From positions 2,482 through 66,481 of the forward strand of contig CAVXHC010000016.1 of NCBI GenBank assembly GCA_963761355.1: a stretch of DNA of 64,000 nucleotides, read 5' to 3'. The translations under genes were made by a program, and so were the position numbers. The notes beneath the pieces were generated by a model. That model was not told where the DNA came from. It saw nothing but the letters and a program-made list of their open reading frames with translations, and did no database searches. The stretch is from an uncultured Solirubrobacteraceae bacterium (GTDB lineage Bacteria; Actinomycetota; Thermoleophilia; Solirubrobacterales; Solirubrobacteraceae). Positions 22,634 to 52,492 of this stretch are shown here, in pieces. How positions within the stretch are numbered: the first letter of the stretch is position 1; the number at the start of each line of letters is the position of its first letter.

Positions 22634-22674
22634 TGTCCCGAATATGTCCCAAGATGGCGGTAGCTTCGGGACAT
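22634..22674. repeat. integrase arm-type sites, left (TGTCCCGAA, TGTCCCAAG and one inverted copy over the int ATG)
   Basis: atatgtcccgaatatgtcccaag...ttcgggacATG. Confidence 0.75.
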
Positions 22675-25207: not shown

Positions 25208-25456
25208 TCCGCCTGAATCGCGGACTGCCCGCGGGGCCGGGGGGAGCTCGACGGCAGCCGATCGATCCTAGCTGCGAGCGGACCAGTCGAAATGGGCATA
25301 CGGCGACGCGCTAACACCAGAACTGGACGCGGGAATGTCCAGAACTGGGTGGCCGAGGCCACCGTGAGCGTAGACACTTACCGCGTGAGTAGCGTGACAA
25401 ATCAGCGTCTGGCACCGATGTGTGCCACGACGCTCTAGCGGCATGGAGGTGGCGTG

Positions 25457-26775: not shown

Positions 26776-27000
26776 CAGGACCGCTTCGCGGCTAAAGCGA
26801 GCGTCCGCGCTCAGCCGAGCAGACGCCCCCTTCGGACGACCTACGAGCGTCTCGCCGGGCGCTGCCGAGACTGCTCCTTAGCCATGGCGAAGCAGGCGTC
26901 TAGGGGTCGTCGGCCAGCACTGTCGCGAATCGTCCCAAGCGAGCGTCGGCGCGGTCCCTGCTCGGACGCTTGCTCGTCCCGCGAAAGCAGTAGCGCGGGT
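26776..27000. repeat. array of palindromic repeat sites
   Basis: cgcttcgcggctaaagcgagcgtc; ttagccatggcgaagcaggcgtc; tcgtcccaagcgagcgtc; cccgcgaaagcagtagc. Confidence 0.8.
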
Positions 27001-30748: not shown

Positions 30749-30907
30749 CCATAGCTCGCGCTCGTGGCATGCGAGAGTTCAGAACTGGCGGAGTCGGGCA
30801 CCCACCGCCGCTCAGGACGGACGGCCCAGTGTGTTGGGCCCTAAACGACACGCCTGCTAGCTGAGCATCGCGACAGCCGACCAGCCCCAAGGCCGGGCTT
30901 GCGCTCA

Positions 30908-31010
30908 GGACGAGCCGCGAGCGTCTCGTCAGGCACTCGCGAGGCGCCTGCCTTACGATGGCGAAAGCAGTAGCCGGTGGCGCGGACGCGCCGACTGCTG
31001 TTGGTCGTCC
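30908..31010. repeat. 103-bp dispersed repeat, copy 1
   Basis: 99/103 identical to 46818-46920. Confidence 0.95.
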
Positions 31011-31067
31011 GAAGCGACGGCACGAGGTGAGACCCCCCGGATGCTCGGTCAGCTAGGGAAGCAGGCG

Positions 31068-31574
31068 TCAAGGCGCCCAGCGCGCACTCGCTGAGGCCCT
31101 TGAGGGTGGCTTCGCACGCGCGGCGGGAAGGGTTGTGCCCACCAGGCCGCGGATCATCGCGGCCGTGAAGTTCAGCCAGTCAAAGTAGTCGCGCCAGACC
31201 ACGATCTGTGCATCACGGACATCGAAGCGCCCGCAGACCCAAAGCTGAACGCTCAGCCGCCCGAGCTTCAGGACGTCCGTGCGCTCGGTCAGAACCGTTG
31301 GCCCGTCCGCCGCGATGGCGTGGACGTAGACGTCGAACCCGCCGCCCGCTCGACCGAGCGTGCGCTGGAAGAACTGACGAACGCGCTTGCGCCCGTGCAA
31401 GGTGGGCAGCGAAACGTTCGTGTACTCGACGTCCACGTCCAAGAGCTCAGCTGCTGCGTCGATGTCGCCAGCGCGAAGGTGGTCCAAGAAACGCTCCACC
31501 ACCAGCGTGGGCGTGGATCCGTCCGCCGGTTGGTTGAGCTGCTCTGCGGTGACCTCGCTCGCAGGCTCAGGCAT
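31068..31574 (-). CDS. limonene-1,2-epoxide hydrolase family (NTF2 fold)
   Basis: YTNVSLP...VLTERTD...VCGRFDV...WRDYFD; TATGCT 7 nt before the ATG. Confidence 0.88.
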   Translation of the reverse strand: MPEPASEVTAEQLNQPADGSTPTLVVERFLDHLRAGDIDAAAELLDVDVEYTNVSLPTLHGRKRVRQFFQRTLGRAGGGFDVYVHAIAADGPTVLTERTDVLKLGRLSVQLWVCGRFDVRDAQIVVWRDYFDWLNFTAAMIRGLVGTTLPAARAKPPSRASASARWAP

Positions 31575-31774
31575 AACCGCAAGCATACGGCTACTCAGCC
31601 TGAGGGACGGCGCCCGATTCGCCTCTCTACTCTCACGCAAGCGAGCGCGCGGAGGACCCAGCTCGGCATGCTCACTTGGACGATCTGGAGCACGTCGTGC
31701 GAGGACAACCAGATGCCGGCTTGCGTGCCCGAATGCAGAAACGTCCGAGATGAGGAAAGGCCGATAATGAAGGG

Positions 31775-32416
31775 ATTGCCGGCGAAGAGTGGACGACCGC
31801 CGAGCATGTCCTTCGCTATCTCGACCGGGCCGATGGGTATCCGCGCCGTGCGGAGGGAGAGAGCGTCCTATTCGAGCATGTTCCTCGCGACGCCCGTCGC
31901 ATCCTGGACCTCGGGACGGGCGACGGACGCCTGCTCGACCTTTTCCTGATCGATCGCCGCGAGATCCTCGGTGTGGGCCTGGACTTCTCCGAGCTCATGC
32001 TCGGGGCGGCACAAGCGCGCTTCGCCAACGACGAGCGCATCGAGCTCGTCAAACATGACCTGGCGGAGCCTCTGCCGGCCCTGGGGCGCTTCGATGCTGT
32101 CGTCTCGTCCTTCGCCATCCACCGCCTCGAGCACGAGCGAAAGCGGTCGCTCTATCGCGAGATCTTCGATCTGCTCGAACCCGGCGGAGTGTTCGCGAAC
32201 TTCGAGCACGTGGCGTCTGCGACCTATCGCCTTCATCTCGCTTTCTTCGAGGCGATCGGCGAGCCGCTCGAGGATGAGGATCCGTCCGACCATCTGCTCG
32301 ACGTGGAGAGTCAGCTGGGGTGGCTACGCGCACTCGGCTTCGACGATGTCGACTGCTACTGGAAGTGGCTTGAGATGGCGCTCCTCGTCGGCATCAAGCC
32401 TGCCGAGATCGGTTAG
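31775..32416 (+). CDS. class I SAM-dependent methyltransferase (frame opens at ATT)
   Basis: ILDLGTGDG...GLDFS...FDAVVSSFAIH...LLEPGG; no canonical start after the in-frame TGA at 31751. Confidence 0.85.
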   Translation: MAGEEWTTAEHVLRYLDRADGYPRRAEGESVLFEHVPRDARRILDLGTGDGRLLDLFLIDRREILGVGLDFSELMLGAAQARFANDERIELVKHDLAEPLPALGRFDAVVSSFAIHRLEHERKRSLYREIFDLLEPGGVFANFEHVASATYRLHLAFFEAIGEPLEDEDPSDHLLDVESQLGWLRALGFDDVDCYWKWLEMALLVGIKPAEIG

Positions 32417-32513
32417 CCGCCGGCGAGTAGCGAGCCCTCAGCCCAACACCTGCCGCTGCTGCTTTCGGACGGCTGCAAGCTTCTCCAACTCCACCTGGCA
32501 GGCTCTCGCTCCC

Positions 32514-32615
32514 GGACGAGCCGCGAGCGTCTCGCCCGGCACTCGCGAGACGTCTGCTTCGCCGTGGCGAAAGCAGTAGCCGGTGGCGCGCAGGCGCGGA
32601 CTGTGTTGGTCATCC
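32514..32615. repeat. 103-bp dispersed repeat, copy 2
   Basis: About 90% identical to the other two copies; central ctgcttcgccgtggcgaaagcag. Confidence 0.9.
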
Positions 32616-32775
32616 GCAGCTAGCGTCAGCGAGGACTAAGTTCAGACGCTCGCTCAGCCGCGAGAGCCGGCGCGGCGCGGCGCCTCCGCTTGGCGAATTG
32701 CTAGACGGTTGCCGTCGACGAGGCGGGCTCATTTTGGTCCTCGCGCGGCGCGTGGCAGTCGACGAGAGCCCATGG

Positions 32776-33813
32776 GTGGACATAAGCGCTGCCGGCGTTC
32801 AGGATCCCCTTTGGAGAGCGATGTCCAAGTACGCAACCCATGCTCCAACAGCCCCCTTCGAGGCGGCCCAGCGGCGGCTGTTTGACGCATGTGCGATGCA
32901 GATTGTCAGCCGATGCGTCCGCTTAGCTGACCCGCCGCTTGCTGTTCGTGTGCTTGAAGCGGGCGATGGTCCGCCGCTCCTGCTCGTGCACGGCAGCGGC
33001 ATGAGCGCGTCGACGTGGGCGCCGTTGTTGCCCCACCTCCCCGACCACCGGCTGATCGCCCTCGACCTGCCGGGCTTCGGACTCAGCGACATGTTTGACT
33101 ACGCGGGGCGATCGCTGCGCGAGCACGCGGTCGCGCAGCTCACGTCGCTGCTCGACGCGCTCGACCTCCAACGGGTCCCTGTCATCGGCACCTCGCTCGG
33201 CGGCATGTGGGCGCTCTGCCTGGCCGTCGAATCGCCGGAGCGGATCACCGCGCTGGCCGCGCTCGGGGTTCCTGCCGTCGCACTGCCCGGCATGCACGGC
33301 GATGCCTTCTTCACCGCCCTCTCCACGCCCGGGGTGCGTCACTTGGTCGCGCGGATCGGCTCGCCGAGTGTCGCTGTCACCCGCCGATCCTTGGCCCGCG
33401 GCGCGATCGGGTCCCGTGCCGCCGAGCTTGCGCCCGAAGGGTTCTTCGATGTCGTCCATGAGGGCATGCGACAGCCGGGCTTCCGTACGGCGATGTTGAG
33501 CCACATGTGGCTTGCCATGCGATTCGGACGACCCCGTCCGGAGAACTTCCTCTCCGACGCTGAACTTCAACACGTCGCGGCGCCCGTGCTCATGATCTGG
33601 GGGGACGAGGACCCCTATGGCGGCCCGGAGATCGGCCGGCGGGCCACAGCGCTGATCCCCAACGCGCACCTCGAGGTCATGTCAGGGCGCCACGCCCCGT
33701 TCCTGGACGACCCCCAGCGGTGCGGCGCCTTGATCGACCAGCTGCTCCGCCGAGCAGCTGCCACAGAAGACCGTCCGCGAAGCGACGAAGCAACACGCAG
33801 CGGGCCCGAATAG
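32776..33813 (+). CDS. alpha/beta hydrolase
   Basis: LLVHG, DLPGFG, GTSLGG nucleophile elbow, WGDED, HAPF; start uncertain. Confidence 0.88.
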   Translation: MDISAAGVQDPLWRAMSKYATHAPTAPFEAAQRRLFDACAMQIVSRCVRLADPPLAVRVLEAGDGPPLLLVHGSGMSASTWAPLLPHLPDHRLIALDLPGFGLSDMFDYAGRSLREHAVAQLTSLLDALDLQRVPVIGTSLGGMWALCLAVESPERITALAALGVPAVALPGMHGDAFFTALSTPGVRHLVARIGSPSVAVTRRSLARGAIGSRAAELAPEGFFDVVHEGMRQPGFRTAMLSHMWLAMRFGRPRPENFLSDAELQHVAAPVLMIWGDEDPYGGPEIGRRATALIPNAHLEVMSGRHAPFLDDPQRCGALIDQLLRRAAATEDRPRSDEATRSGPE

Positions 33814-33848
33814 CGCAACCCCGCGTTCGTCGGCCGCCCGGCCGACGT

Positions 33849-34577
33849 TCAGCGCACGTGCTCGTCGAAGAAGGCAAGCATCCGCCGCCAGCCGTCCTCG
33901 GCCGCCTGCTCGTCGTGGCCGACCGCCATCGGCGTCGGCACACGCGCGAGCCAGCCCTGCCAGCCGTCGACTCGCGAGAAGAACGAATGTCCGGCGCCAT
34001 CGTAGGTCTTGACGTCGTGAGGTACGCCGAGCGCGCTCAGGTGGCGCTCGAGCCGCTCGGCCATGTGTCGCCCGACTACACGGTCCTTGGCGCCGTAGCT
34101 CGCGACGACCGGACACACGCCGTCCAGCTTCGATCGGTCGGCCGGCACCGTCCCGTAGTTGACCGCGGCGGCCTGGAAGCCGGGCCGCGTGCCGGCGACC
34201 AGCGCGAAGCCGCCACCCTGGCAGAACCCGGCGACGGCGATGCGCTGGGCGTCTACCTCGACCCTTGCGGCCAGCGCCTCGCGAGCCGCGTGGATGTCGG
34301 CGATCTCGCGGGCGACGCCGCCGCTCAGCATGTCGACTATCACGCGGCTGAGGCACACGATCCGCCTGCCATGCGAGTAGAGGTCGGGGGCGAGTGCCGC
34401 ATATCCCGCATCGGCGAAGCGGGCGGCGATGCGGCGGATGTCGCCGTTGAGGCCGAAGGACTCGTGCAGCACGACGACGCCAGGATGCGGGCCCTTGTCC
34501 GCGGGCACGAAGAACTCGGCGCGGAGGCTCGAGCCCTCAAGAGTTCCCACCTGCAGCTGCTCAGCGCTCCCCGGCAT
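33849..34577 (-). CDS. dienelactone hydrolase family protein
   Basis: VVLHESFGL, GFCQGG and YDGAGHSF; start trimmed from the ORF track. Confidence 0.9.
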   Translation of the reverse strand: MPGSAEQLQVGTLEGSSLRAEFFVPADKGPHPGVVVLHESFGLNGDIRRIAARFADAGYAALAPDLYSHGRRIVCLSRVIVDMLSGGVAREIADIHAAREALAARVEVDAQRIAVAGFCQGGGFALVAGTRPGFQAAAVNYGTVPADRSKLDGVCPVVASYGAKDRVVGRHMAERLERHLSALGVPHDVKTYDGAGHSFFSRVDGWQGWLARVPTPMAVGHDEQAAEDGWRRMLAFFDEHVR

Positions 34578-34679
34578 CGCCCCCGGACGATAACGAGCGT
34601 ACCCAGGTCTAACGACGGCCGCCATGCGAGCGGAGTTCTCCCTTGCACCGAAAGCGAGCGCCTCGATCGTCGAGCCCCG

Positions 34680-34865
34680 CGCTGTCGCTTGGGACGACAA
34701 ACGCTCGTCCGAGCACCGACTCTCGAGACTACTGCTTCGCCATGGGCTGAGCGAGCGTCTCGCGCGTCGCGGAGCGGACGCGCGAGTTTCGTCCCAAGCG
34801 ACAGCACTGAGCCAAGCTCGGCGCGCGCTCGCTCGCCCGCCGAAAGCAGCAGTCCTGGATACTCC
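34680..34865. repeat. array of palindromic repeat sites ending at the SnoaL promoter
   Basis: ctgtcgcttgggacgac; ctactgcttcgccatgggctgagcgagcgtctcg; tcgtcccaagcgacagc; cgaaagcagcagtcctgGATACT. Confidence 0.8.
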
Positions 34866-34870
34866 CTGCC

Positions 34871-35293
34871 GTGTCTGAGGAGTCCACGACCCCCGACCTG
34901 GTCGAGCTTTCCTATCGACGATTCGAGGCCATAAACAGACGGGACCTGGAGGCGGTGGTGAGCTTCTTCGCCGCTGACGCCATCTGGGACATGTCGCCAG
35001 TCGACATGGGCATCGTCGAGGGCCGCGGCGCAATACGCAATGCGCTCAAAACCTGGTGGGAGATGTTCCCAGGGATCGTGTCTGAGCTTGACGAGGTTCT
35101 CGACCTCGGCAACGGCGTTGTGCTCCAGGTTGTCACCCAGCGAGGTCACCCGGCCGGCAGCTCGGGCGAACTTCGCCAGCGTTCTGGCCGCGTTTCCATC
35201 GTGGTCGATGGCCTGATCGAGGCCCTGACGTCCTACAACGACATCGACGAGGCCCGCGCTGCTGCCGAACGCCTCGCCGAGTCGAGGGGGTAA
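34871..35293 (+). CDS. SnoaL-like NTF2 protein, type A (MSEESTTPDLVEL...ERLAESRG)
   Basis: FEAINRRDLEAV..FAADAIWD; GATACT 7 nt before the start. Confidence 0.88.
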   Translation: MSEESTTPDLVELSYRRFEAINRRDLEAVVSFFAADAIWDMSPVDMGIVEGRGAIRNALKTWWEMFPGIVSELDEVLDLGNGVVLQVVTQRGHPAGSSGELRQRSGRVSIVVDGLIEALTSYNDIDEARAAAERLAESRG

Positions 35294-35388
35294 GCGTTGT
35301 CGGAGGAGAGCTCATGACGCCCTGGACGTCACCCGCGACGGATGAAATGGGCGAGACTTGGCCCGCGAACCGAGGAGGATGAGCGCTT

Positions 35389-35781
35389 ATTTCTAAGCAG
35401 AACGTGGAGATCGTGCGCCAAGCGTGGGAAGCCTTTGCGCGCCACGACAATGAGTCGGCCCTGCGCCTCTACGACCCCGAGGTTGAGATACATGTCGGGT
35501 TCCTCGGCGGCGAGGTCTACCGCGGTCTTGCGGGTGTCCGAGATTTCTTTCGTGACTGGTTGGCGGTCTGGGACGAGTACGGATCGACGGTGGAGGAGTG
35601 GATCGACGCCGGGGATGATGTGGTAGCGGTGATACGTATATGGGGTCGCGGAAGAGCGAGCGGGGTCGGGGTCGAGGAACGTCAATCGCATGTCTGGACC
35701 TTGCGGGACGGCAGGCTCTGGCAGTTGCAGCGCTATGAGACGAAAGCTGACGCGCTCAAAGCCGTGGGGCTGACGGAGTAG
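35389..35781 (+). CDS. SnoaL-like NTF2 protein, type B (ATT at the homologous start; GTG 35404 is an alternative)
   Basis: (I)SKQNVEIVRQAWEAF...ALKAVGLTE. Confidence 0.82.
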   Translation: MSKQNVEIVRQAWEAFARHDNESALRLYDPEVEIHVGFLGGEVYRGLAGVRDFFRDWLAVWDEYGSTVEEWIDAGDDVVAVIRIWGRGRASGVGVEERQSHVWTLRDGRLWQLQRYETKADALKAVGLTE

Positions 35782-35784
35782 GCG

Positions 35785-36189
35785 ATGTCGCAGGCGAACG
35801 TGGAGATCGCGAAGCGCGTGATCGACGCTTTCAACGGGCGGGATGTCGATTCCATCTTCAAGTGCGTGAACTCGGATATCGAATGGTTCCCTGCGCTTCC
35901 CGGAGTCGTGGAGGGCGACGGCTACCGTGGCCGCGAGGGCATTGAAATGTACTTCGAGGAAATCTCGAACACGTGGGAGGAGTACAGCGTGGTGGGGCAG
36001 GACTTTCGCGATCTCGGCAACGACCGAGTTCTTGTTCTCAGCCGGGTAAAGGGACGTGGTAGAGGCAGTGGCGTCCAGGTCGATTCGCCGATTGGTGTCA
36101 TCTATGACTTTCGCGACGGCAAGATGTCGCGCGTCCGCGCCTATCTCAATCACGGCGAGGCGTTGCGGGCGGCGGGCGTCTCCGACTAG
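35785..36189 (+). CDS. SnoaL-like NTF2 protein, type B
   Basis: MSQANVEIAKRVIDAFN...EALRAAGVSD. Confidence 0.88.
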   Translation: MSQANVEIAKRVIDAFNGRDVDSIFKCVNSDIEWFPALPGVVEGDGYRGREGIEMYFEEISNTWEEYSVVGQDFRDLGNDRVLVLSRVKGRGRGSGVQVDSPIGVIYDFRDGKMSRVRAYLNHGEALRAAGVSD

Positions 36190-36192
36190 CAG

Positions 36193-36230
36193 TCAGGTGC
36201 CGGTGTCCGGCGTGAGGCCGAGGTCGACCG
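36193..36230 (-). pseudogene. orphan 3' tail of a type-C SnoaL gene (...DLGLTPDTGT*)
   Basis: Matches the 3' end of the gene at 45325. Confidence 0.6.
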
Positions 36231-36279
36231 ACACGGTGCTTCCTCGTGATGCGAGCGCGACGTCGCACGCGGTCCCGGC

Positions 36280-36450
36280 TCCTGGTCTGGACGACGACCG
36301 CTCGTCCGTGCTCCGACGCACGAGACGCTCGCTTAGCTCCCGCGACAGCCGTCTGAGCTCGGGCGGTATGAGCCGTCGAGCGTCGTCCCGAGCGCACGCG
36401 TGACGTAAAGGCGCTGAGAGACTCGCAGTGCTCGGGAAGCAGGCGTGAGA
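36280..36450. repeat. array of palindromic repeat sites
   Basis: ggacgacgaccgctcgtccgtgctccgacgcacgagacgctcgcttagc (cf. 52420-52475); cgggaagcaggcgt. Confidence 0.7.
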
Positions 36451-36671
36451 CGCCCCCGCTCGCCGAGTCGACTGTACCGCTGGCTACGTTGGAATAGCCG
36501 CCGCTCACCGAGGCGCCCGTACTGCTGGCCGGTTGTTTCACCACCGCTCACCGATCCACCGTTGCTCGTGGCTTTGCTAGTGAGACCGCCGCTCCTGTGC
36601 TCGCCGGGCTCGGACTACGTCCCCGGCCAGCTGCTCGGGGTCAGCGACGGGCTCGCCGTCGGAATGGCAGG

Positions 36672-37934
36672 CTAGGCGCCGCCGGCCGGCCGCTGGCCCT
36701 CGCGCGGCCCCGGCGTGAAGCTCACCGGGAGAGAGGTGATCATGTTCGCCCAGTTCGAGACTAGACGCTGAGGCTCCCCGGCACTGCCAATGTCGGGCAT
36801 GCGACGCGCGAGCTCCTCGAACAGGACGCGCAGCTCCAGCCGCGCGAGGCCGGCTCCGAGACAGAAGTGGCGGCCGCCTCCCCCGAACGCGTCGTGGTCG
36901 GGCTTGGCGCGGCGGATGTCGAACCGCTCCGGCTCGTCAAAGACATCCTGGTCGCGCGACGCCGACGAGTACCACATTACGACCCTATCGCCCTCGGCGA
37001 TCGCGTGTCCGTCGATCTCGGTGTCCCTGAGCGCGGTGCGCGCGAACCACTGCACCACCGACGTCCAGCGCAGGATCTCCTCTACCGCGCCCGCGATCAG
37101 CGACGGGTCGGCGACCAGCTCAGCGAGCTGGTCGGGGTGCTCGAGCAGCGCGCACATGCCGCCGGCGGCCGTGTTGCGCGTGGTGTCGTTGCCGGCGAAG
37201 ACAAGCAGCCCGAAGAACACGAGGATCTCGCTGTCATCCAGCTGCTGGCCGTCGACCTGCGCATTGCGCAGCCGCATCACGAGGCTCTCGTCGTCTCCGG
37301 CGGCGGCCTGCTTCGCTATCTGTTCATGCAGGTAGCCGGCCATCTCCACGAACACCTCAGTCGCCGCGGCCGGCTCGGGTGAGCGCTGCGCCTCCTCGAT
37401 CTGGTCAGTCCATGCATGCAGGCGAGGAATGTCCTGGTCGAGGCAGCCCATCAGATCGACAAGAACGCCGAGCGGCACGGGAACCGCGATGTCGCGAGCG
37501 AAGTCGCACGCGCCCAGCTCAATCACGGCATCGAGAACGCGGGTTATGCGCCCGCGAACTGCGTCCTCGAGCTTTGCGACGGTATGCGGGGTGAACGCGG
37601 TCTGCAGGATCGCGCGGTACTTGGTGTGCTCCGGCGGGTCCTTGTACAGCAGCAGATTCCGGGTCAGGTCGAGCGGCACGACCTGGTCAGGCTCTAGGAA
37701 GATGCCCCGCTTCCAGGATGAGAATGTCGCAAAGTTGCGGCTGACTGCAGCGATGTCGGCGTGGCGCGTTAGCGACCAGAAGCCAGATCCATCGGGGAGC
37801 GTGTTCCAGCGGACCGGCGTCTCGGCCCGCATGCGTTCGAACAGCTCGTGCGGCGGGCCATCCTGGAACCAGACCGGGTCCATCAAGTCGACCTCTGCGA
37901 GATCGACTCCGTCAACTGAGCCTTTGGTCACCAT
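36672..37934 (-). CDS. cytochrome P450 (CYP124/125/142-like)
   Basis: FAGNDTT, EEILR and FGGGGRHFCLGA; start trimmed to MVTKG. Confidence 0.93.
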   Translation of the reverse strand: MVTKGSVDGVDLAEVDLMDPVWFQDGPPHELFERMRAETPVRWNTLPDGSGFWSLTRHADIAAVSRNFATFSSWKRGIFLEPDQVVPLDLTRNLLLYKDPPEHTKYRAILQTAFTPHTVAKLEDAVRGRITRVLDAVIELGACDFARDIAVPVPLGVLVDLMGCLDQDIPRLHAWTDQIEEAQRSPEPAAATEVFVEMAGYLHEQIAKQAAAGDDESLVMRLRNAQVDGQQLDDSEILVFFGLLVFAGNDTTRNTAAGGMCALLEHPDQLAELVADPSLIAGAVEEILRWTSVVQWFARTALRDTEIDGHAIAEGDRVVMWYSSASRDQDVFDEPERFDIRRAKPDHDAFGGGGRHFCLGAGLARLELRVLFEELARRMPDIGSAGEPQRLVSNWANMITSLPVSFTPGPREGQRPAGGA

Positions 37935-37978
37935 CCCTACCCCTCTCCCAGCCAAAACATGTAAGCCTCCGACACCGC

Positions 37979-38404
37979 CTACCCCCGTTCCTTGGCGAGG
38001 CGTTCGGCGGCGACACGGGCCTGGTCGATGTCGAGGTAGGTCGTAACCCGCTCGACCAGGATCCCCCGCCACAGGTAGACGAGTGCCTGCCGAGATTGAA
38101 CGTGACCGGCACTGCCAACGGGGCGGGCGTTCTGGCGCGCGACGGCAAGGGCAACTCCGCTACCAAGGTCCTGAGCCTGCTCCACAGCGAGCTCAAGCTT
38201 TTCATAAGCGTCGACCCACTCCTGCCACAAGCCACGCATGGCTGCATGATTCTCGAAGGTGCCCAAGCCCAAGGGCGAGAAGTCCCAGACGGCATCGGGA
38301 GCGAAGTGGCTCAGGATCGCATCCCAGTCGCCACGCTCAGCAGACGCCCAGAAACCGCGCACGAGCTCGACCAGGTCGGGGGTAGTGGACTCCTCGCACA
38401 TCAC
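37979..38404 (-). CDS. SnoaL-like NTF2 protein, type A
   Basis: MMCEESTTPDLVEL...AAERLAKERG; GATACT 7 nt before the start. Confidence 0.88.
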   Translation of the reverse strand: MMCEESTTPDLVELVRGFWASAERGDWDAILSHFAPDAVWDFSPLGLGTFENHAAMRGLWQEWVDAYEKLELAVEQAQDLGSGVALAVARQNARPVGSAGHVQSRQALVYLWRGILVERVTTYLDIDQARVAAERLAKERG

Positions 38405-38438
38405 GCAGTGGAGTATCCCGGACCGCTGCTTTCGCGGC

Positions 38439-40024
38439 GAGGCTGTTTCGTAAACATTCGCGCGTCCGTCAGCGCGGGCGTTCGCGGTGGGTTTCGCGCT
38501 CTGAGGGGCGTGGTGGTCTTGGCAGCGGTGAGACAGATGGGCCCGACCGGGCGTTCCCGGGCCCCTTTCAGGCCCCGGCGGTCGCTATTTGGCGGCTGTG
38601 GAGCTTCAGCAGATTGTGCGTAGCGGTGATTAGTCGCCATTCCGACCTGGCGGCGGCTCTGCCACGGCGTTGGAAGCGATCCATCCGGCGGTTGAACTTC
38701 GTATGTCCGAACACCGGCTCGATCATCGCCTGGCGTTTTCGGTAGAGCGCGTGTCCGAGCTCGGTGGAGAGCACTCGTCGCATGTGTGCGTAGGCGCCGC
38801 CATCCCACCCTGGACGGGTGCCCTTGCGGTGGCCGGCGTCGGGCGGGATCAGTACCTGGATCCCACGGTCGATGGCGTTCTCCATTTGCTCCCTGTGCCA
38901 GTAGCCGGCGTCGGCGAGCAGCACCCCCGGCGTCTCTGTGACACCCGCCGCCTGAAGCTCGCTCTGGGTCGCGTCGAGCATCGGCTGCAGATGCCCGAAA
39001 TCTGGTGAGTCGACCGTGACCTCGGCGGCGATCACGACCTGGTTCTCGTTGACGGCGGCTTGGGCGTTGTAGCCCTGAACGTAGCCGCGCGCGACCTTCA
39101 ACATGCGCGAGTCCGGGTCAGTCAGGTTGATCTTCCCCGCGGGAGTCTCGGGTGGTGAGTAGGGGGTTGGTGAGGCCCCGAGGCGGCGACCTCTGCTGTC
39201 CCGTGCATGCACGCGGTAGTGCTCGTAGGCGGCGTTCGCGCGGGACTCCGCCCACAGCTCCTCCTGCAGACGGCGCTTGGCCTCTTTCAAGCGAGCCGGG
39301 CGAGAACGCGGGATCGGCTTGGCTTCCTTGGCGCGTTCCTCATCGAGCTGGCGTTTGGCCTCGCGCAGCCAGCCGCGACGGCCCTGGCTGGTCGAGAGAT
39401 GCTCCGGCAGCTCATCGCCGCGCTTATCGCCATAGAGCTCGTCCTCGGCTGCGTCGACTTCGGCGGCCTCTTTGAGGATCTCCCGCGCGATCTGATCGAA
39501 GTCCGCGTTCTGCTCGCGGCTCGCGTTGGCGTGGACCTTGGTGCCGTCGACGGCGATCGTGCCGACCTTGACCATCCCCGCTCGCGCGCACAGCGTGAGC
39601 ACGCTGGTAAAGAGTCCGGCCAGAGCGTCTGAGTGCTCTGAACGAAAGCGATTGATCGTCACGTGATCGGGCGCGAGGTTCGACGCGATCACCCGGTAGG
39701 CGACGTCCTCCAGGCACGCGCGCTCGATACCTCGCGATGAGCGCTGTCCCTTCGCATAGGCGTAGAGCACGATCGCGACCATCATCGCCGGGTCATAGGC
39801 CGCGCGACCCCAACCGTCCTCGCGATATCGCGCGTAGAACGGCGACAGATCCATGTCCTTGACCGCGTCGATCACAAACCACGCCAGATGGTTCTCCGGC
39901 AGCCACTCGCGCAGCGAGGGCGACATCAACAACAACTGCTCACGATCACATTCGATGAAGTTCTGGGGCATCCCAGAAGTGCTTAACGACACCGGACAGA
40001 CCGGGGGGTTTGCGAAACAGCCTC
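38439..40024 (-). mobile_element. IS1182-family insertion sequence, 1586 bp
   Basis: 17-bp IRs GAGGCTGTTTCG(T/C)AAAC; 5-bp TSD GCGGC at 38434-38438 and 40025-40029. Confidence 0.9.
38568..39971 (-). CDS. IS1182 transposase
   Basis: GRAAYDPAMM...PDHVTINRFR...IAVDGTK...TDPDSR...GYNAQ...LADAGY...YRKRQAMIEPVFG. Confidence 0.93.
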   Translation of the reverse strand: MPQNFIECDREQLLLMSPSLREWLPENHLAWFVIDAVKDMDLSPFYARYREDGWGRAAYDPAMMVAIVLYAYAKGQRSSRGIERACLEDVAYRVIASNLAPDHVTINRFRSEHSDALAGLFTSVLTLCARAGMVKVGTIAVDGTKVHANASREQNADFDQIAREILKEAAEVDAAEDELYGDKRGDELPEHLSTSQGRRGWLREAKRQLDEERAKEAKPIPRSRPARLKEAKRRLQEELWAESRANAAYEHYRVHARDSRGRRLGASPTPYSPPETPAGKINLTDPDSRMLKVARGYVQGYNAQAAVNENQVVIAAEVTVDSPDFGHLQPMLDATQSELQAAGVTETPGVLLADAGYWHREQMENAIDRGIQVLIPPDAGHRKGTRPGWDGGAYAHMRRVLSTELGHALYRKRQAMIEPVFGHTKFNRRMDRFQRRGRAAARSEWRLITATHNLLKLHSRQIATAGA

Positions 40025-40162
40025 GCGGCTAAAGCGAGCGCCCGGCCAGCCCGGGGTCAGCGCTTGGAACGACGAGCACTCGTCAGGACTGCCTCTGCGG
40101 ACGCTTCTGCTTTCCACGGGAGCTGGCGTCCTTTCCACTCCGTCATTGAGCAAGCGGAGAAA

Positions 40163-40250
40163 CGTCCCGAATTGTGTCCCGAACTCGGGCATTTGGTCCG
40201 GCCCACTTCACCGAAGAAGTGGAGAAACGTGTCCCGAAACATGTCCCGAA
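40163..40250. repeat. integrase arm-type sites, right (four YGTCCCGAA)
   Basis: Copies at 40163, 40175, 40230 and 40242. Confidence 0.75.
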
Positions 40251-40332
40251 CTCCGCAAAGCTGAGGCCATCTGAGCCCATTTCGGGTGCCAAAATATGGC
40301 TCACGAAAGCCAATATCGAGGCCTCTCGTGAG

Positions 40333-40388
40333 ACTCGTAATGAAGGGGTCCGGGGTTCGAGTCCCCGCGTCGGCTCTGGAAAGGCCCA
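40333..40388 (+). other. 3' half of tRNA-Thr(CGT) plus 13 bp; attR of island 2
   Basis: Identical to 22529-22584. Confidence 0.93.
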
Positions 40389-40394
40389 ATAGCT

Positions 40395-40441
40395 TTGCCA
40401 TGGTAGGGAAGAGGCCGCCGGTTCGAGTCCGGCGCTGGGCT
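40395..40441 (+). other. 3' fragment of a tRNA-Thr(GGT)-like gene; relic att site
   Basis: ATGGTAG-GGAAG-AGGCC-GCCGG-TTCGAGT-CCGGC-GCTGGGC-T; no 5' half upstream. Confidence 0.7.
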
Positions 40442-40607
40442 TAAAGTCCCTGCAACGCAGCGACTTTGGGCGCACTGCGGCGTCATCTTGAATGGGCAGA
40501 GGTGCTACGCCTAAGTCCACGACGGACGTCGAACTGTCCTGCAAATGGGTCCTTTTCGCGGGCGACGACCCCATTACGCGGCAGTAGGGGTCGCTGCTTA
40601 ACAGCGC

Positions 40608-41249
40608 TCAGCCGACCTGGTACTTGATGTGCGTGACGCCGGGTGCGTCGAGGGCCCGGACCTGCGTAAGCTTGAGAGCCCCGCGCTGGAGACCCTCGAA
40701 CAGGCGCTCGCCGCCGGCCATGATCACCGGCGCGATCGAGATATCAACCTCGTCGACCAAGCCTTCGGCCAGGTATTGGTTTACGACCGACGCGCCGCCG
40801 GCGAGCCAGATGTCTTGCCCCTGAGCGGCGTCCTTGGCCTGCGCGAGTGCCGACGCGATCCCGTCGGTGACGAAGTGGAAGGTGGTGCCGCCCTTCATCT
40901 CAAGCGGCTCGCGCGCGTGGTGCGTGAGCACGAACACCGGATGGTGGTAGGGCGGGTTCTCACCCCACCAGCCTGGCCACGGATCGGCGCCCCAGGGTCC
41001 CGTGCCGCCTCCGAACATGTTGCGTCCCATGATGGTCGCGCCGATGTGTGCGCGGCGCTCCGCTACCACCGCGGAGCTGGCGTTAGTCTCGCCGCCCTGC
41101 TCGCCGTGCATCTCGCGGAACTCCTTGAGCGGGAAGAACCATTTGTGCAACTCCATCCCGCCTACTCCGAGCGGGTTCTTCTCGTTCTGGTCTGGGCCTG
41201 CGACATAGCCGTCCACCGACATCGTGATGCTGAGTCTCAGATTGCTCAT
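40608..41249 (-). CDS. dihydrofolate reductase-like (RibD C-terminal) protein
   Basis: SITMSVDGYVAG...IMGRNMF...IWLAGG...GLVDE. Confidence 0.9.
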   Translation of the reverse strand: MSNLRLSITMSVDGYVAGPDQNEKNPLGVGGMELHKWFFPLKEFREMHGEQGGETNASSAVVAERRAHIGATIMGRNMFGGGTGPWGADPWPGWWGENPPYHHPVFVLTHHAREPLEMKGGTTFHFVTDGIASALAQAKDAAQGQDIWLAGGASVVNQYLAEGLVDEVDISIAPVIMAGGERLFEGLQRGALKLTQVRALDAPGVTHIKYQVG

Positions 41250-41447
41250 ATCCACTCCTGCCTGGGTTTTCGAATTCTGCCGACAAAGACGCCGGAGCGC
41301 GTGAAGCAGGACAACCTGGCGAATGCGATCGCCCAAGAGCGGCGCGATTTCAATGCAGAGACATGCTTATCGCACAGCTGATCCATCGCTTTCCGAGGCA
41401 CAGTGTGGCGCCCTGAGCAGCCGTGTCGGCCCGATGCGGCCGGGGGG

Positions 41448-41855
41448 CTAGACGGGCGCCAGCAGCCGAGCGACAGCGTTCTCGATCGCCACGAGCAGCG
41501 TCCACGTCGAGTTCGCATGGCCGATGTGCTCGCCGAGCGGGATTGTGGCAGCATCCTCGACCAGCTCGGTGAGCGCTGACTCCATCCGTTCAACCAGGCA
41601 GTCGCGAATTGCATCGGTGATTCCGAGCGGCACGTCCGCGACCGGCGGATCTCCGCTCAGCGCATTCGTCAGGTCCCATGCTTCGCGGACCCGCTCGCGG
41701 GACCGCGCCAGGTCGAACTCCCCCGGGCCGCCGTGCCTTCGGTCAGCGGCGTACTTCGCGTTCCACTCATGATCGCGTATCACCGCCGCGGAGTAGACGA
41801 GCGCCCCCACCTGCTCGGGATCAACCGCCAGTCTCACTGTGGCTAGGCTGCGCAT
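41448..41855 (-). CDS. hypothetical protein
   Basis: 135-aa ORF with plausible composition. Confidence 0.45.
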   Translation of the reverse strand: MRSLATVRLAVDPEQVGALVYSAAVIRDHEWNAKYAADRRHGGPGEFDLARSRERVREAWDLTNALSGDPPVADVPLGITDAIRDCLVERMESALTELVEDAATIPLGEHIGHANSTWTLLVAIENAVARLLAPV

Positions 41856-41892
41856 TGTGAGCGCCTCTTCCAGTGGGTTTTGCTTACTGACG

Positions 41893-42210
41893 TCACTCGG
41901 TCGCTGAGAGTGTGCGCGACCCTCGCTCCCTGGTCAGCTCGCCGGCCCTCATCATGTGTGAGATCTCTGCGGCGATTGTGCCGCGGTTGGCGTTCAATCC
42001 CTTGGCCATGTCGCCGGTGGTGCTCTGCGGGTGATCCTTCACGTATTCGAAGATGCGCCCGTCGATGTCGTCCTTGTGCCGTCGCGCTGTGGCGCGACGG
42101 TTACTGGCGCGACGCGCGGTTGCGCGACGCGTGGAGCGCTGCGGCACCAATGCTGCTGTGAGCGCCGACTCTGGCGGGCGGGCTCCGTCCACGATTGGCT
42201 GCGTCTTCAT
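41893..42210 (-). CDS. basic-linker winged-HTH protein, possibly a remnant
   Basis: RRATARRASNRRATARR then IFEYVKDHP.STTGDMAKGL...GEL. Confidence 0.45.
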   Translation of the reverse strand: MKTQPIVDGARPPESALTAALVPQRSTRRATARRASNRRATARRHKDDIDGRIFEYVKDHPQSTTGDMAKGLNANRGTIAAEISHMMRAGELTRERGSRTLSATE

Positions 42211-42541
42211 TGTCGAGAACCTCCTGACCCTCATGGAGGTGCGCGCGAGAGGAGAGGGTACGAGACCCATCACGTAGATAAGCGAGCTGGGCCCCGCGAG
42301 TCTCGATCATGGCCTCAAGCTCCGCGCCTCGGCGCAATCGCACTTCGGTGGCTTTCGGGCTTCTGAGGCTGAAGTCCTGCCCGCAGGGTCAGCTCAACTA
42401 TCCACACTATCCCTTTCCGGGTCGGCGACAGACAACGGGCTTGCTGCCCCGCTCCGGTCCGGCGCTCGCGTGTCGGCGCCGGTGGTCGATTCGGGCTAGG
42501 ATGGAACGCGTCTTCGTCTCTGCACCCCCCTCGATCGCGCG

Positions 42542-42964
42542 ATGAGCTCACAGGACGTCAAGGGCTCAGCACAGACGCACGGCGACGTGCTGACCGCGAT
42601 CTCGGACGGGATGGTCGCGCTGCTGAAGGAGTTCTACGGTCGAGGCCCGACCCGTGCCAAGTCCTACTACGAGGACGACCTGGTGGTGTGCGTGCTGCGC
42701 GGCGGCTTTTCACGCGTCGAGGAGACGCTGCTCGAGGGCGGGCGCGGTCCCGCCGTCATCCAGCAGCGGATGGAGTTTCAGGAGCTCATGCGTGACCGTT
42801 TTGAGGCGGTGATCGAGGGCGCGACCGGCCGCCAGGTGATCGGCTTCATGAGCGGGAACCAGCAGCATCCGGACATGATGTGCGAGGTGTTCATTCTCAC
42901 GCCGACGGATCTCGTAGATGTCGACGAGCTCCAAGCAAGCCGACCGGCGCCGAGCTCACGCTGA
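42542..42964 (+). CDS. DUF2294 domain protein
   Basis: ISDGMVALLKEFYGRGPTRAKSY..DDLVVCVL...CEVF. Confidence 0.88.
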   Translation: MSSQDVKGSAQTHGDVLTAISDGMVALLKEFYGRGPTRAKSYYEDDLVVCVLRGGFSRVEETLLEGGRGPAVIQQRMEFQELMRDRFEAVIEGATGRQVIGFMSGNQQHPDMMCEVFILTPTDLVDVDELQASRPAPSSR

Positions 42965-43106
42965 CGCAACGCGGCGGGAGCCTCGCCCGGCTTCGGCCGC
43001 CGAGCGAGTATGCTGGGTGTTGGAGGGCACACAGCGTGAGGTCGGCTTACAGCGGCGGGCAGCACGGCCTGACTTCCGAGAGTCCAACCTAACTCGGGAG
43101 GTCTTT

Positions 43107-43670
43107 ATGCCCAGCACGCAGCTTCTCACCAATTCGACCGCGCGCTGCGTGGATGCGATGCATCTTCTGCAGGCCGACGCGAACCTCGACCGCATGCCCA
43201 CGCGCGCCGGACATTTCGACAGCGTTCAAACCGGCGCCATCGACACGGCCGAGGCGTCCGCGAAGGCTGCCTCAGAGACATTCATCCACCCCGCCGCCGG
43301 TGAGATAACCGAAAGGTTCGATCCCATCGCCTGCCTTGACGACCGAGTCCGCCACGGGGGCAGACTCGTCGAACCGGTCGAGTCAGGCCGCTACATCCAG
43401 TTACAAGGGCCCAGTCGAACGCTGCTCATCCCGCTCGGCGCCGAGGTGACCCATATCGGTCGCGGTCTTGCGGCCGACCTGCATCTCGACGATAGCTCCG
43501 TGTCGCGACGCCACGCGGTCCTCGTCCCGCGGCCCTCCGGCCAGCGGATTCTCGACGACCGTAGCTCCAACGGCACGTTCGTCAATGGCCGGCGCATCGA
43601 GCAGTTCGATCTGCGCAACGGCGACGTGATCGCGCTCGGCCGAGTCGTGCTGCGGTATCTAGAGCTATAG
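43107..43670 (+). CDS. FHA domain protein
   Basis: HIGR...SVSRRHA...DDRSSNGTFVNG; GGGAGG RBS. Confidence 0.9.
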   Translation: MPSTQLLTNSTARCVDAMHLLQADANLDRMPTRAGHFDSVQTGAIDTAEASAKAASETFIHPAAGEITERFDPIACLDDRVRHGGRLVEPVESGRYIQLQGPSRTLLIPLGAEVTHIGRGLAADLHLDDSSVSRRHAVLVPRPSGQRILDDRSSNGTFVNGRRIEQFDLRNGDVIALGRVVLRYLEL

Positions 43671-43781
43671 GGGCTGGGAGAAGGAAAAGCTCGGGAGCTT
43701 GAGCCCCAGCGGTACGCGACTAGCACCCGACCGCAGAGCTACTGCCTGATCCGGGAGCCTGTCCCAAGGCTATATCCCTAA

Positions 43782-43973
43782 GTGGATCAAGCACAGCGTC
43801 AAGGCATCCTGCACCACATGGCTGAGCATCCGCCAGAATCGGGCGATCAAGTCACGGCGTATGCCTACGCGCTTGCGGGATGCCCGGATGATCTAGCGAT
43901 CTGGCTGGAGACACCGGCCGCACAGGATGCGATCTCGGCGTTGCTGGCGGCCACGGCCGACGCAACGCCTTAG
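43782..43973 (+). CDS. small hypothetical protein
   Basis: 63-aa ORF with TATATC 5 nt before the GTG. Confidence 0.35.
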   Translation: MDQAQRQGILHHMAEHPPESGDQVTAYAYALAGCPDDLAIWLETPAAQDAISALLAATADATP

Positions 43974-43992
43974 ACGCCCAGGGGCGAGGACA

Positions 43993-44211
43993 TCAGTCTC
44001 GCTTCCCAAGCTGTTCGATCTCGTCCGCAAGTTCAAGGATCGCGCGGTGAAGTGCAGAGATGAGCTCGCCGTGCGCTCGGACCTGTTCCTCGACGTCGAC
44101 ATGGTCGGGAAGTTCGCGCGAGCCCCTGGTTGCGATGAAGTGTGCGAGTGCGGGAGCTTCGTACTGATCCGGCTCCCTGATGCGTCCCTCGATGTCGTCG
44201 CGTAATGACAT
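43993..44211 (-). CDS. small hypothetical protein
   Basis: 72-aa helical ORF; GGTGAGG upstream. Confidence 0.5.
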   Translation of the reverse strand: MSLRDDIEGRIREPDQYEAPALAHFIATRGSRELPDHVDVEEQVRAHGELISALHRAILELADEIEQLGKRD

Positions 44212-44399
44212 GCCGACACCTCACCAAAACCGAGGCGTTTACACCGTTTCAGGATGATATCGTCACGCGGACACTGGCCCTGCGGCCATAGCGCCAGGCC
44301 TATGCCCGCCGCCGAAAGTGCCCCAGGCGCAGACGAGGACGTGGAGCGAGGGCGAACAGCGTTCTCGGCGGGGCCAGCGCGTTTGAGGGGGAGGATCAG

Positions 44400-44570
44400 G
44401 GCGCGAGCGTCACGGCAGGCACCTACCGAGGTCCACCGCGCGTACTCCTCCCGAGGCGCTGACGCAGCGTCAGAGGGCTGGCCGGTCGCTGTCGCTGTCG
44501 CTTGGCGCGCGCGTGGGCTCAAGGGACACGCTTGGGCGTCGTCCGCTGCGAAAGCGTCGAACATGTCGCT
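44400..44570. repeat. degenerate array of the same repeat modules
   Basis: gcgagcgtcacggcaggcac (cf. 103-bp repeat); ctgtcgcttgg; gtcgtccgctgcgaaagcg. Confidence 0.55.
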
Positions 44571-44872
44571 GTTTGCGGGAATTTCATGGGCAACAGTGTT
44601 CACCAGCCGTGCCGACCACCGAAATAGGAGTAGCGTCGATGCGGGGCCGTTGTCGGCCGCTTCTGCTCGGATCTCTCGCGCAGGCTCCGGGAGGCGCCAC
44701 CTCCCGCCGACCTCACGGGCTGTTTCGTCCGTAGCGACAGAAACGCCACATAGCCAGCAGGGCTCGTCCTGATTTTGGGGGTTTTGCGCTTACACGCAAG
44801 TCCTCGCGCCCCGGTGTGAACCGTGGCCGAGCGCGCTCGTTGGAGCGGGATGTTCAACCGAGAGAGGAAGCC

Positions 44873-45085
44873 ATGGACCCAATCGCCCACATCACGGTCA
44901 CAGATCACATAGGCACGGTGTTGAAGCGTGTCTCGATCGCAAATCGGGACGTCCAGGATGAGATCGACATGGTGGGCTCGTCCTTTCGCGACAGAGGAGG
45001 GCTCGATCCGTTCCACATGGTCATCCGCAGTTTTGACGATGACCTCGCGAAAGCGATGGAGACAGCCTGGAGCCAGGCCACCTAG
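44873..45085 (+). CDS. small hypothetical protein
   Basis: GAGAGGAAG RBS; 70 aa. Confidence 0.55.
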   Translation: MDPIAHITVTDHIGTVLKRVSIANRDVQDEIDMVGSSFRDRGGLDPFHMVIRSFDDDLAKAMETAWSQAT

Positions 45086-45324
45086 ATCGCATGAGAGGGC
45101 CGCACTTCCTGGCCACCGGCGCCAACCGCGGCATCAACAGATCGCAGCTTGGGGGTCGCCGACACAGCGCCGTTGAAGTCGGATACGTCGATCGTGTCCG
45201 ACATCCGGCTCTGCGCTGTGCCAGTGCCTACGCTCTCCTGTAGGACGAGCACGAGTACAGAGGCGCGCTCCGAGCCTTCGGTGATCACGGCGACGCATTG
45301 CGGGCGGCGGGTCTGGTGTAGGGC

Positions 45325-45729
45325 TCAGGTGCCGGTGTCCGGTGTGAGGGCGAGGTCGGCGAGGGCACGGTCGCGGTCTGTGTAGTTGGTGATCTTGGTG
45401 ACCTTGCCGTCGTGAATATCGAATACCTCAGCGCACCGTCTGGTCACCGGCACGCCGCTTTTCCTGCCGCGCCCGCTCCATCGCGTCAGCAACAGAACAC
45501 GGTCGCCGTCGAACTCCGTGTACTCGTCCACCTCGGCGGAGAAGTCGACGATATCGCTGAAGAGGTTGCGCATAGCTTCCGCGAGCCCCACGAGGCCCGT
45601 GTAGGTGCGCGGCTCAAGCGCGTCGACGACGGCGTACTCGATCTCGGGGTCGGCCCACTCGGCCTTGCTGTAGTCGCCGTGTTCGATGGGCTCCTAGATT
45701 GAGCGCACTAGGTCCAAGTTCGAGGACAC
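45325..45729 (-). pseudogene. SnoaL-like type-C gene with an in-frame amber at codon 12
   Basis: VSSNLDLVRSI*EPIEHGD...LADLALTPDTGT; TAG at 45694-45696; GATAAT 7 nt before the GTG. Confidence 0.8.
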
Positions 45730-45872
45730 GGGAGGGATTATCGCCCACCCGTAGCCGTCCACGGCGGGGCGTGCCGAGAGTGGTGCTTTCGCCCAGAAGC
45801 GAGCGTCTCCGCCGGAGTCGCTGAGGCTGCTGGTCCGGATGAGCCGCGGGCGTCTCGCCCAGCTGAGCGCGC

Positions 45873-46738
45873 TTGTGGACGGCGCCGCTCGTGGACATCG
45901 TCGAGGGGCTTTCCCCCATCGAGACCGAGTCGGCGCGCACCGTCGTGTGGCATGGGATGCACAGCGGCGGGACGATCTTGGCCTACATGACCGCCGTCCG
46001 CATTCACGACGCTGGCGGCCGGCTCGCGGGTACGGCCCTTATCTACAAGCCGGGGACCAGCATGGCGGTGCTCGGTACGGTCGCTGGCGCGGGCGATCTG
46101 CGCCACTTCGAGCGCATGGAGCAGGTGGCGAAAGCGGGCCGGCGGCCGGCAGCCATTCTGTTCGCCGATTTGGAGTCCTCCTCGCTTCTCTCTCGGACGC
46201 TGCCGACGGCCAGCTACTTCGCGCTCGGCAGGCGCATGGCCCGTGCGGCAGACCAGTGCGTGATTGACGCGGGCGGGCTCGTTGGCCGCCACGTCGGAGA
46301 TGGGGCTGTCGCATTCTTCCTGGCAGCGAGCACCGGCTCCGAGTCCGCCTCCTCCCGCGCGTGTATCCAGGCAGCCCGCGCGCTCAGGGAGGCTATGGTC
46401 GCGATCGCGGCTCGCAGCGAACTCGCACCCGACGACCTGGTCATGCGTTTCGGACTGCATTGGGGCTCGACCCTGTATGTCGGGCAGATAGCCACCGGCG
46501 GACGCACAGAGGTGACCGCCCTCGGCGACGAGGTCAACGAGGGGGCACGCATCGAGGCTTGCGCCACCGGAGGGCGAGCGCTTGCCTCAAAGGCGCTGGT
46601 TGAGCGCCTTGACCCCGACGATGCCGTCGCGCTCGACCTCAACCCCGACCGCGTTACCTACACGCGTTGGCGGACCTGCCCACGGCGACGGAGAAGGCGC
46701 GCCGCGACGCCCCAGCGATCGCCGTCTGCGAGGTCTAG
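45873..46738 (+). pseudogene. class III adenylate/guanylate cyclase, 5'-truncated and frameshifted near 46665
   Basis: ILFADLESSS...HVGDG...RFGLHWG...ALGDEVNEGARIE; tail LADLPTATEKARRDA is in another frame. Confidence 0.8.
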
Positions 46739-46817
46739 GCCGAGCCGGCACGCGGCTTCACTTGCGCTCGCCTGTGGATGCGAGCGCCACGGCGGACAAC
46801 ACTCAGACTCCTGGACC

Positions 46818-46920
46818 GGACGAGCCGCGAGCGTCTCGTCAGGCACTCGCGAGGCGCCTGCTTCGCCATGGCGAAAGCAGTAGCCGGTGGCGCGGACGCG
46901 CCGACTGCTGTTGGTCGTCC
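46818..46920. repeat. 103-bp dispersed repeat, copy 3 (outside island 2)
   Basis: Central hairpin CTGCT-TCGCCATGGCGA-A-AGCAG. Confidence 0.95.
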
Positions 46921-46996
46921 ATTCCGATCGTCTCGCGAGCCCCATGGGGACGGCTCCTTCCACGGGAAGGCGAGAGTCCTGCCGTCCGCGCAAGCC

Positions 46997-47062
46997 GGCC
47001 TGCTGCCAATCGGGCAGGGCATCGATGTAGGCGTCAACACGCGGGTCGGCAACGTAGGTCAC
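46997..47062 (-). pseudogene. 5' fragment of a DUF1801/YdhG-like gene
   Basis: MTYVADPRVDAYIDALPDWQQA, then runs into repeat sequence. Confidence 0.65.
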
Positions 47063-47181
47063 GCCGGATCCACCGTAACTTGATGACGTCGTTCAGACCA
47101 CCGAGCGCGCACGTACGTCAGCAGAGCATGTAGCGGCAACCAGCACACCGCCACATGCTCTGCGCGAACGGACTCCGGGGG

Positions 47182-52367: not shown

Positions 52368-52492
52368 CGCTGCTGCTTTGCGAGACATCCAAGCGTCCCC
52401 GCTGCGACCGGGCTCACGCTCGCTTGGGACGACGAGCACTCATTCGTGCTCCGACACGCGAGACGCTCGCTTCGCCCCGTCCTGGATACTTC
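52368..52492. repeat. array of repeat sites ending at the SnoaL promoter
   Basis: gctgctgctttgcg; cgctcgcttgggacgacgagcactc; cgagacgctcgcttcgc; gtcctgGATACT. Confidence 0.75.

Follow-up and report, generated by a model that had tools for sequence, protein, structure and literature searches.

A probable new family of small palindromic intergenic repeats in an uncultured genus of Solirubrobacteraceae

The closest described counterparts of the repeat reported here are of two kinds. Repetitive extragenic palindromes and bacterial interspersed mosaic elements (REP/BIME) occur in Enterobacteria and Pseudomonas as mosaics of palindromic units, which are 20-40 nt long with a 5' GTAG, present in hundreds of copies and mobilised by REP-associated tyrosine transposases (RAYT) of the Y1 type. 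Miniature inverted-repeat transposable elements (MITEs) such as Correia/NEMIS of Neisseria, ERIC (~127 bp) of Enterobacteria and RUP and BOX of Streptococcus are non-coding, ~100 bp long and discrete within unrelated flanks; they possess terminal inverted repeats and internal hairpins, fall into subfamilies and are patchily distributed across species. Here we analyzed a stretch of 64,000 nt (the window; GenBank assembly GCA_963761355.1, contig CAVXHC010000016.1, positions 2,482 to 66,481) from an uncultured Solirubrobacteraceae bacterium, whose genome is a metagenome bin of 4.04 Mb in 21 contigs with 68% G+C. A first-pass annotation had described a ~103-bp repeat starting at positions 30908, 32514 and 46818 of the window, and all three copies, referred to as c1, c2 and c3, were confirmed by repeat finding and direct reading. 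They represent the best-preserved subfamily, called alpha, of imperfect palindromes of 101-104 bp that are largely confined to one uncultured genus of this bacterial family, and with moderate confidence we regard these palindromes as a new family of small intergenic non-coding repeats of the REP/BIME or MITE type. If true, this would be the first description of such a family in the Solirubrobacteraceae, which are abundant soil Actinomycetota and of which this genus has no cultured members; a literature search for Solirubrobacter combined with palindromic and intergenic found no paper.

Like REP/BIME, the units are short imperfect palindromes that lie in intergenic DNA between convergent or tandem genes, form mosaics with other motifs (CTGCTTTCG/CGAAAGCAG in this genome) and have repeatedly been used as insertion sites by insertion sequences (IS). 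Unlike REP/BIME, the unit is ~103 nt long and starts with GGACGA without a 5' GTAG, it is found in tens and not hundreds of copies with at most ~24 loci per genome, it is clustered in islands near tRNA genes and it is not accompanied by a RAYT/Y1 transposase in this genome. With the MITEs named above it has length, non-coding nature, terminal inverted repeats, internal hairpins, unrelated flanks, subfamilies and patchy distribution in common, and its mosaic is modular as in BOX elements. In contrast to MITEs, the perfect terminal repeat comprises just 6 bp, neither a target-site duplication (37 copies) nor an autonomous partner was found, and the unit always lies in a conserved palindromic frame instead of arbitrary short targets. 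The first-pass annotation had named an ordinary MITE as the alternative to its own reading; the terminal inverted repeat agrees with a MITE, the missing duplication and partner do not. As no target duplications were found, nor a RAYT or an autonomous partner in this genome, the unit stands outside both kinds when these are taken strictly, and the family is unusual in having very sharp boundaries without target duplication and without the known partner enzymes.

In four subfamilies the core identity is 0.80-0.90, whereas the 100-nt flanks reach 0.55-0.62 compared to 0.58 for random 100-mers of the same DNA. Identity begins at GGACGA and ends at TCGTCC, within the genome (c1 vs c3) as well as between species, and the same motifs are the boundaries of c1, c2 and c3 alike, c2 being ~90% identical to c3 according to BLAST. 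Such edges indicate that the unit has been copied as such and not within a larger duplicated segment. In an alignment of 37 copies the termini are nearly invariant, with GGACGA and TCGTCC pairing in 97.7% of the cells, and the span between them is 99-110 nt, mostly 102-103, even at ~60% identity. The variation of the length by 1-2 bases shows that the unit is non-coding. Regarding the earlier proposal that the unit moves independently of the island harbouring c1 and c2, we can uphold that it behaves as a discrete entity and needs no complete island, as unit identity is 88-90% and the flanks are at random level (0.56-0.62 vs 0.58).

The three copies are not the whole family. A sensitive BLAST search revealed ~30 related loci in the genome, 11 of which are full matches to a covariance model of the unit, and the window itself also holds divergent, degenerate and half members. 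Besides the window, related loci cluster at C14:2.6-16 kb, C17:19-31 kb, C1:18-24 kb, C2:23-31 kb, C2:214-217 kb, C15:107-110 kb and C16:131 kb. Unit clusters are found within ~20 kb of tRNA genes, some with adjoining integrases, which identifies the family as cargo of genomic islands. Among the 121 species of the genus, full-length matches occur in 35 with 1 to ~24 loci per genome, and 86 have none; beyond the genus, ~100 genomes of the order yielded matches in just 2, and no match to the unit was found in the plasmid and phage collections that were searched. Two further Solirubrobacteraceae genomes, G014 and OY969935.1, contain alpha units at ~90% identity. A tree of the units is star-like, with several subfamilies common to different species and several within one genome. 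A second subfamily (L052, L054, L055 and L061 from G128, G090, G121 and G060) shows the same pattern as c1-c3, its members being 83-95% identical in four species and four unrelated contexts. The sharp edges, the conservation of the termini, the existence of subfamilies, the uneven occurrence among species and the dissimilarity of the flanks together argue for a copy-and-paste spread combined with transport by islands.

The three bases next to each end of the unit are variable, and beyond them follows a conserved frame, CGC-NNN-unit-NNN-GCG, extending into the hairpin modules GCGAGCGTC-N-GACGCTCGC and then CGAAAGCAG, with CTGCTTTCG as the mirror on the left side. The unit is thereby the core of a nested, degenerate palindrome of ~200-250 bp. 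A looser mosaic of hairpin modules, centred on the unit, always surrounds it and fills the intergenic spacers, mostly in SnoaL-rich islands close to tRNA genes and often ~75 nt upstream of leaderless SnoaL-like genes. Half units and truncated mosaics occur as well. About 19 copies of the flanking hairpin module are detectable in the genome, and a search for such frames without a unit gave none that was convincing. We suggest that the unit may spread as a non-autonomous MITE- or REP-like element. Its short terminal inverted repeat or its hairpins would be recognised by a trans-acting enzyme, insertion would take place without target duplication into the preferred palindromic frame between CGC-NNN and NNN-GCG, and islands would additionally carry the unit between species. 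A more specific and quite doubtful version assumes an unrecognised mobilisation system that targets hairpins or palindromes and has the unit as its substrate. This system would cut and paste the unit precisely at GGACGA/TCGTCC without leaving a target duplication and would place it at the apexes of larger palindromes, giving rise to nested mosaics by which SnoaL-like gene arrays in islands near tRNA genes are separated and reshuffled.

Several results weigh against the interpretation as a mobile repeat family. No Y1/RAYT transposase (PF01797) is encoded in the genome, and only four of the 121 species of the genus encode one, a single one of these four also having the unit. A longer element with a transposase and unit-like ends was looked for in this genome at spacings of 0.4-6 kb, with chance-level matches only, and for a REP or MITE family the copies are few. 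Direct repeats of 2, 3, 4, 5 and 6 bp at the edges were found in 1, 0, 1, 0 and 0 of the 37 copies, which is at or below chance. For the c3 locus and the DNA from c1 to c2 no clean pair of filled and empty orthologous sites was found, the compared genomes being different species with rearranged neighbourhoods. As single-stranded DNA, the units and their surroundings of 230-260 nt have a predicted hairpin stability that does not significantly exceed that of shuffled sequences (z -0.5 to -1.9). Finally, the constant architectural frame and the location of about one quarter of the units 70-85 nt upstream of a leaderless SnoaL-like gene would fit a selected regulatory or structural role.

In the main rival explanation, the unit acts in cis as a DNA element of SnoaL islands that is under selection (an upstream operator array, an insulator or a two-way transcription barrier separating leaderless promoters from gene ends). 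New copies would arise only when segments of an island are duplicated, and selection would keep them alike. In ~10 of the 37 copies a leaderless SnoaL-like gene begins at a distance of 70-85 nt from the edge of the unit, in some cases on either side, and the order at these genes is hairpin module, conserved GATACT -10 box and start codon 6-10 nt further on. Also in line with a cis-acting element, the motifs keep fixed positions in copies that are only 60% alike, and units are ~90% identical between species and thus as well conserved as protein-coding genes. However, most copies have no adjoining SnoaL-like gene, c1 and c3 being located between convergent gene ends and c2 between tandem genes, and about half of the array-leading SnoaL promoters in the genome have no module upstream. 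Moreover, the unit is missing in 86 of the 121 species, and the flanks of near-identical units are unrelated, so that segmental duplication cannot explain the copies. A classical intrinsic terminator was rejected, as direct reading of c1-c3 showed no run of at least three T after any hairpin of the unit on either strand. We therefore consider a cis-acting element unlikely and prefer the mobile repeat family.

The first-pass annotation had placed the differences between c1 and c3 in the central part of the palindrome. Both copies differ at exactly four positions (30952, 30954, 30955 and 30957), where c1 reads CCTTACG and c3 reads CTTCGCC, and the remaining 99 bases are identical; the two are probably a recent copy pair. 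For four random differences to fall within 7 nt of a 103-nt unit P is ~4.5e-4, and the clustering is thus real. Their position has to be described differently, though. The centre of the unit is the hairpin CTGCTTCGCC-AT-GGCGAAAGCAG, and the c1 changes, while near the geometric middle of the unit, are all in the 5' arm of this hairpin, 3-9 nt away from its axis, where they abolish the pairing without a compensating change in the other arm.

The first-pass annotation took the centre for a recombination overlap that is swapped on crossover. In this model a site-specific recombinase would act on the unit, its central 7 bp would be the overlap, and the unit or neighbouring genes would be moved in this way. 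The significant clustering near the middle of the unit, the many tyrosine recombinases in the genome and the existence of half units joined to other sequence near the centre would be in agreement with this, but the uncompensated changes in one arm and off the dyad axis are not. The c3 state of the centre is also found in c2 and in every close copy from other species, and the c1 state must accordingly be derived; in a tree essentially all change is on the c1 branch (0.088 vs 0.0013). The c1 variant is absent from the rest of the genome, it was found in neither orientation within 1 kb on either side in a search for direct or inverted templates, and in public genomes there were merely two chance matches in unrelated phyla, leaving no partner site for a swap. 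Among five other close copies the variable sites are spread over the whole unit, the central hairpin containing just 3 of the 23 variable columns, and at the place of the c1 changes the other copies show no variation. In the 37-member alignment the termini, columns 36-44 and the centre are conserved best and the right-hand hairpin (columns 78-90) least. Plotting the mismatches over more copies, as had been proposed as a check, hence gave a variation that is not focused at the centre, the very outcome that had been named as speaking against an overlap. Variation confined to a 6-8-bp spacer between inverted arms, as in a core site of tyrosine recombinases with swapped overlap, is not seen, since the c1 changes are located in an arm and the centre is conserved throughout the family. 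Taken together, a recombinase site is extremely improbable.

Integron sites were considered as well. The unit resembles attC sites and clusters of attC sites lacking integron integrases (CALIN) as an imperfect palindrome of similar length with conserved ends, located in variable arrays between small accessory genes, many of them SnoaL-like. In contrast to attC it has no RYYYAAC/GTTRRRY cores, its ends being GGACGAGCC and GTTGGTCGTCC without paired AAC/GTT, its centre is conserved and not variable, and one to four genes of mixed orientation are located between the units, several of them with their own leaderless promoters. No integron integrase was found in the genome, the best score against TIGR02249 being 75.7 bits compared to a cut-off of 265. 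Reading the unit as an attC-like site is thus poorly supported.

Instead, the four differences appear to be a multi-base lesion, derived and private to c1, that affects one arm of its central hairpin, or an assembly error, and in both cases would have nothing to do with a crossover region. Hairpins within multi-copy repeats are commonly affected by mis-assignment of reads and by systematic errors. If the metagenome assembly or its consensus were wrong at this repeated palindrome, which would concern this variation only, this might explain why the c1 variant is private and why its donor sequence was not found anywhere we searched, and the variant indeed sits in such a hairpin in a bin of 21 contigs. 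As c1 agrees with c3 in all of its other 99 bases and the locus is otherwise cleanly assembled, we nevertheless find such an error rather unlikely.

We tested RNAalifold and three hand-made structures on the 37-copy alignment, which had been made without regard to structure. The unit folds into three internal hairpins enclosed by a closing stem, there are alternative stems that exclude each other, and a few changes restore pairs, for example in G014 and in the copy of G024, all of which could be expected for a structured non-coding RNA gene or an RNA regulatory element. However, the proposed stems pair in 74-82% of the cells compared to 71-80% in column shuffles (for example 77.9% vs 75.6%), and pairing barely above shuffles reflects conserved inverted motifs and not covariation. 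Mismatches of the G:T and A:C type are equally frequent in the stems (20/18, 28/25 and 14/16), and the covariance model matches the reverse strand too, so that no strand is favoured, as in a DNA palindrome but not in RNA. Additionally, the orientation of the units relative to neighbouring genes is inconsistent, and Rfam gave nothing at the repeats, neither at the gathering threshold nor with E up to 1. An RNA is hence very improbable, and the data fit better with a palindromic DNA repeat.

The features of the window are listed in Table 1. As annotated, the island (island 2) is real and includes c1 and c2, whereas c3 lies 6.4 kb beyond its right end. Copy c1 has the end of a TetR-family gene region on one side and on the other the stop of a gene similar to limonene-epoxide hydrolases (31068-31640, minus strand), c2 is located between a methyltransferase fragment and an alpha/beta hydrolase, and c3 between a gene probably ending near 46749 and a truncated DUF1801-like gene. 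The two genes between c1 and c2 are found separately elsewhere with at most 81% identity. A long open reading frame (ORF) at 45873-46883 seems to enter c3 but loses its coding signal near 46690, and a TAG near 46747-46749 closes a different frame with high third-position G+C; this suggests a frameshift or sequencing error, and c3 would then be intergenic.

Table 1: Coordinates of repeat units and associated features in the window.
Feature	Position	Strand	Remarks
Copy c1, 103-nt unit, alpha subfamily	30908-31010	+	Family model 108 bits; repeat finding and direct reading
Copy c2, 102 nt (1 base deleted)	32514-32615	+	103.6 bits; centre CTTCGCC, ancestral state
Copy c3, 103 nt, intact central hairpin	46818-46920	+	118.7 bits, top match to family model
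Larger imperfect palindrome around c1, outer arms CCTGCTAGCTGAGCATC / GATGCTCGGTCAGCTAGGGAAGCAGG	30855-31067	.	Ends at stop codon of limonene-epoxide-hydrolase-like gene
Hairpin-module mosaic around c3	46750-46996	.	Right end ...TCCGCGCAAGCC adjoins truncated DUF1801-like gene
Divergent member e26, 102 nt	26834-26935	+	94.8 bits; same termini and centre, different right half
Divergent member e34, 103 nt	34692-34794	-	53.7 bits
Degenerate member e36, GGACGA...TCGTCC	36289-36388	+	BLAST and pattern only, below model threshold
Degenerate member e40, GAACGA...ACGTCC	40067-40167	+	Within island 2, close to its right end
Half unit (right half only) and flanking hairpin module	52420-52477	-	Directly upstream of leaderless SnoaL-like gene starting ~52501
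tRNA-Thr	22499-22571	+	Island 2
Tyrosine integrase of island 2	22673-23875	+	
Attachment repeats of island 2, perfect 56-nt direct repeats	22529-22584 (left) and 40333-40388 (right)	+	Repeat finding
IS1182-type IS, DDE transposase 38568-39992	38439-40024	-	Inverted ends GAGGCTGTTTCG, 5-bp duplication GCGGC

The DNA to the right of c3 allowed a comparison with other species. The remnant of the DUF1801/YdhG-like gene (46997-47180, minus strand) is cut after ~60 codons by the repeat mosaic. Three other species have intact DUF1801-like orthologues, and almost all genomes compared have a different neighbourhood. Where orthologues of a 703-aa hydrolase are present (90-94% identical), the DNA is shared with the window only down to ~46997 and the left sides all differ. 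In G119 a similar mosaic end (...CCGCGCAAGCC) is joined to the DUF1801-like gene 75 nt further into the gene. The stop of homology at ~46997 together with the junction in G119 shows that the mosaic marks a synteny breakpoint.

The mosaics are also landing sites for IS. The IS1182-type element of the window sits in a flanking hairpin module between a SnoaL promoter and the unit e40. The same IS1182-type ends abut such modules at C4:18.2 kb, C14:10.18 kb and C15:109.9 kb, and the element seems to prefer this repeat mosaic. In G024 an alpha unit (L027, G024:C14, CAWGER010000014.1, ~4470-4620; also L023) is split by an IS3-family element with the ends TGGAGTTGCCCC and a 3-bp duplication GCG, which is located inside the third hairpin of the unit. 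As these IS lie inside units or modules and have made ordinary duplications, the units were intact targets. The family marks where islands vary, where synteny breaks and where IS prefer to land, and it can be used for the annotation of these metagenome-assembled genomes and for tracing the exchange of islands. It opens no long-standing question, and the attractive idea of a recombination overlap is left unsupported.

Genome-wide, ~63 SnoaL-like gene segments occur in arrays, and the array leaders have GATACT 6-10 nt before a leaderless start (MSEESTTPDLVEL...). Both start and end of these paralogous genes are conserved at the DNA level. In the window one leaderless SnoaL-like gene starts at 34871, 76 nt from the edge of e34. 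A 390-aa protein with collagen-like triple-helix repeats is encoded in island 2 (25454-26626), with three tandem 72-nt DNA repeats at 26197-26412 inside its gene, and two c-di-GMP-I-GGC riboswitch aptamers (Rfam RF03167) score above the gathering score on the minus strand at 63020-63094 and 63791-63866.

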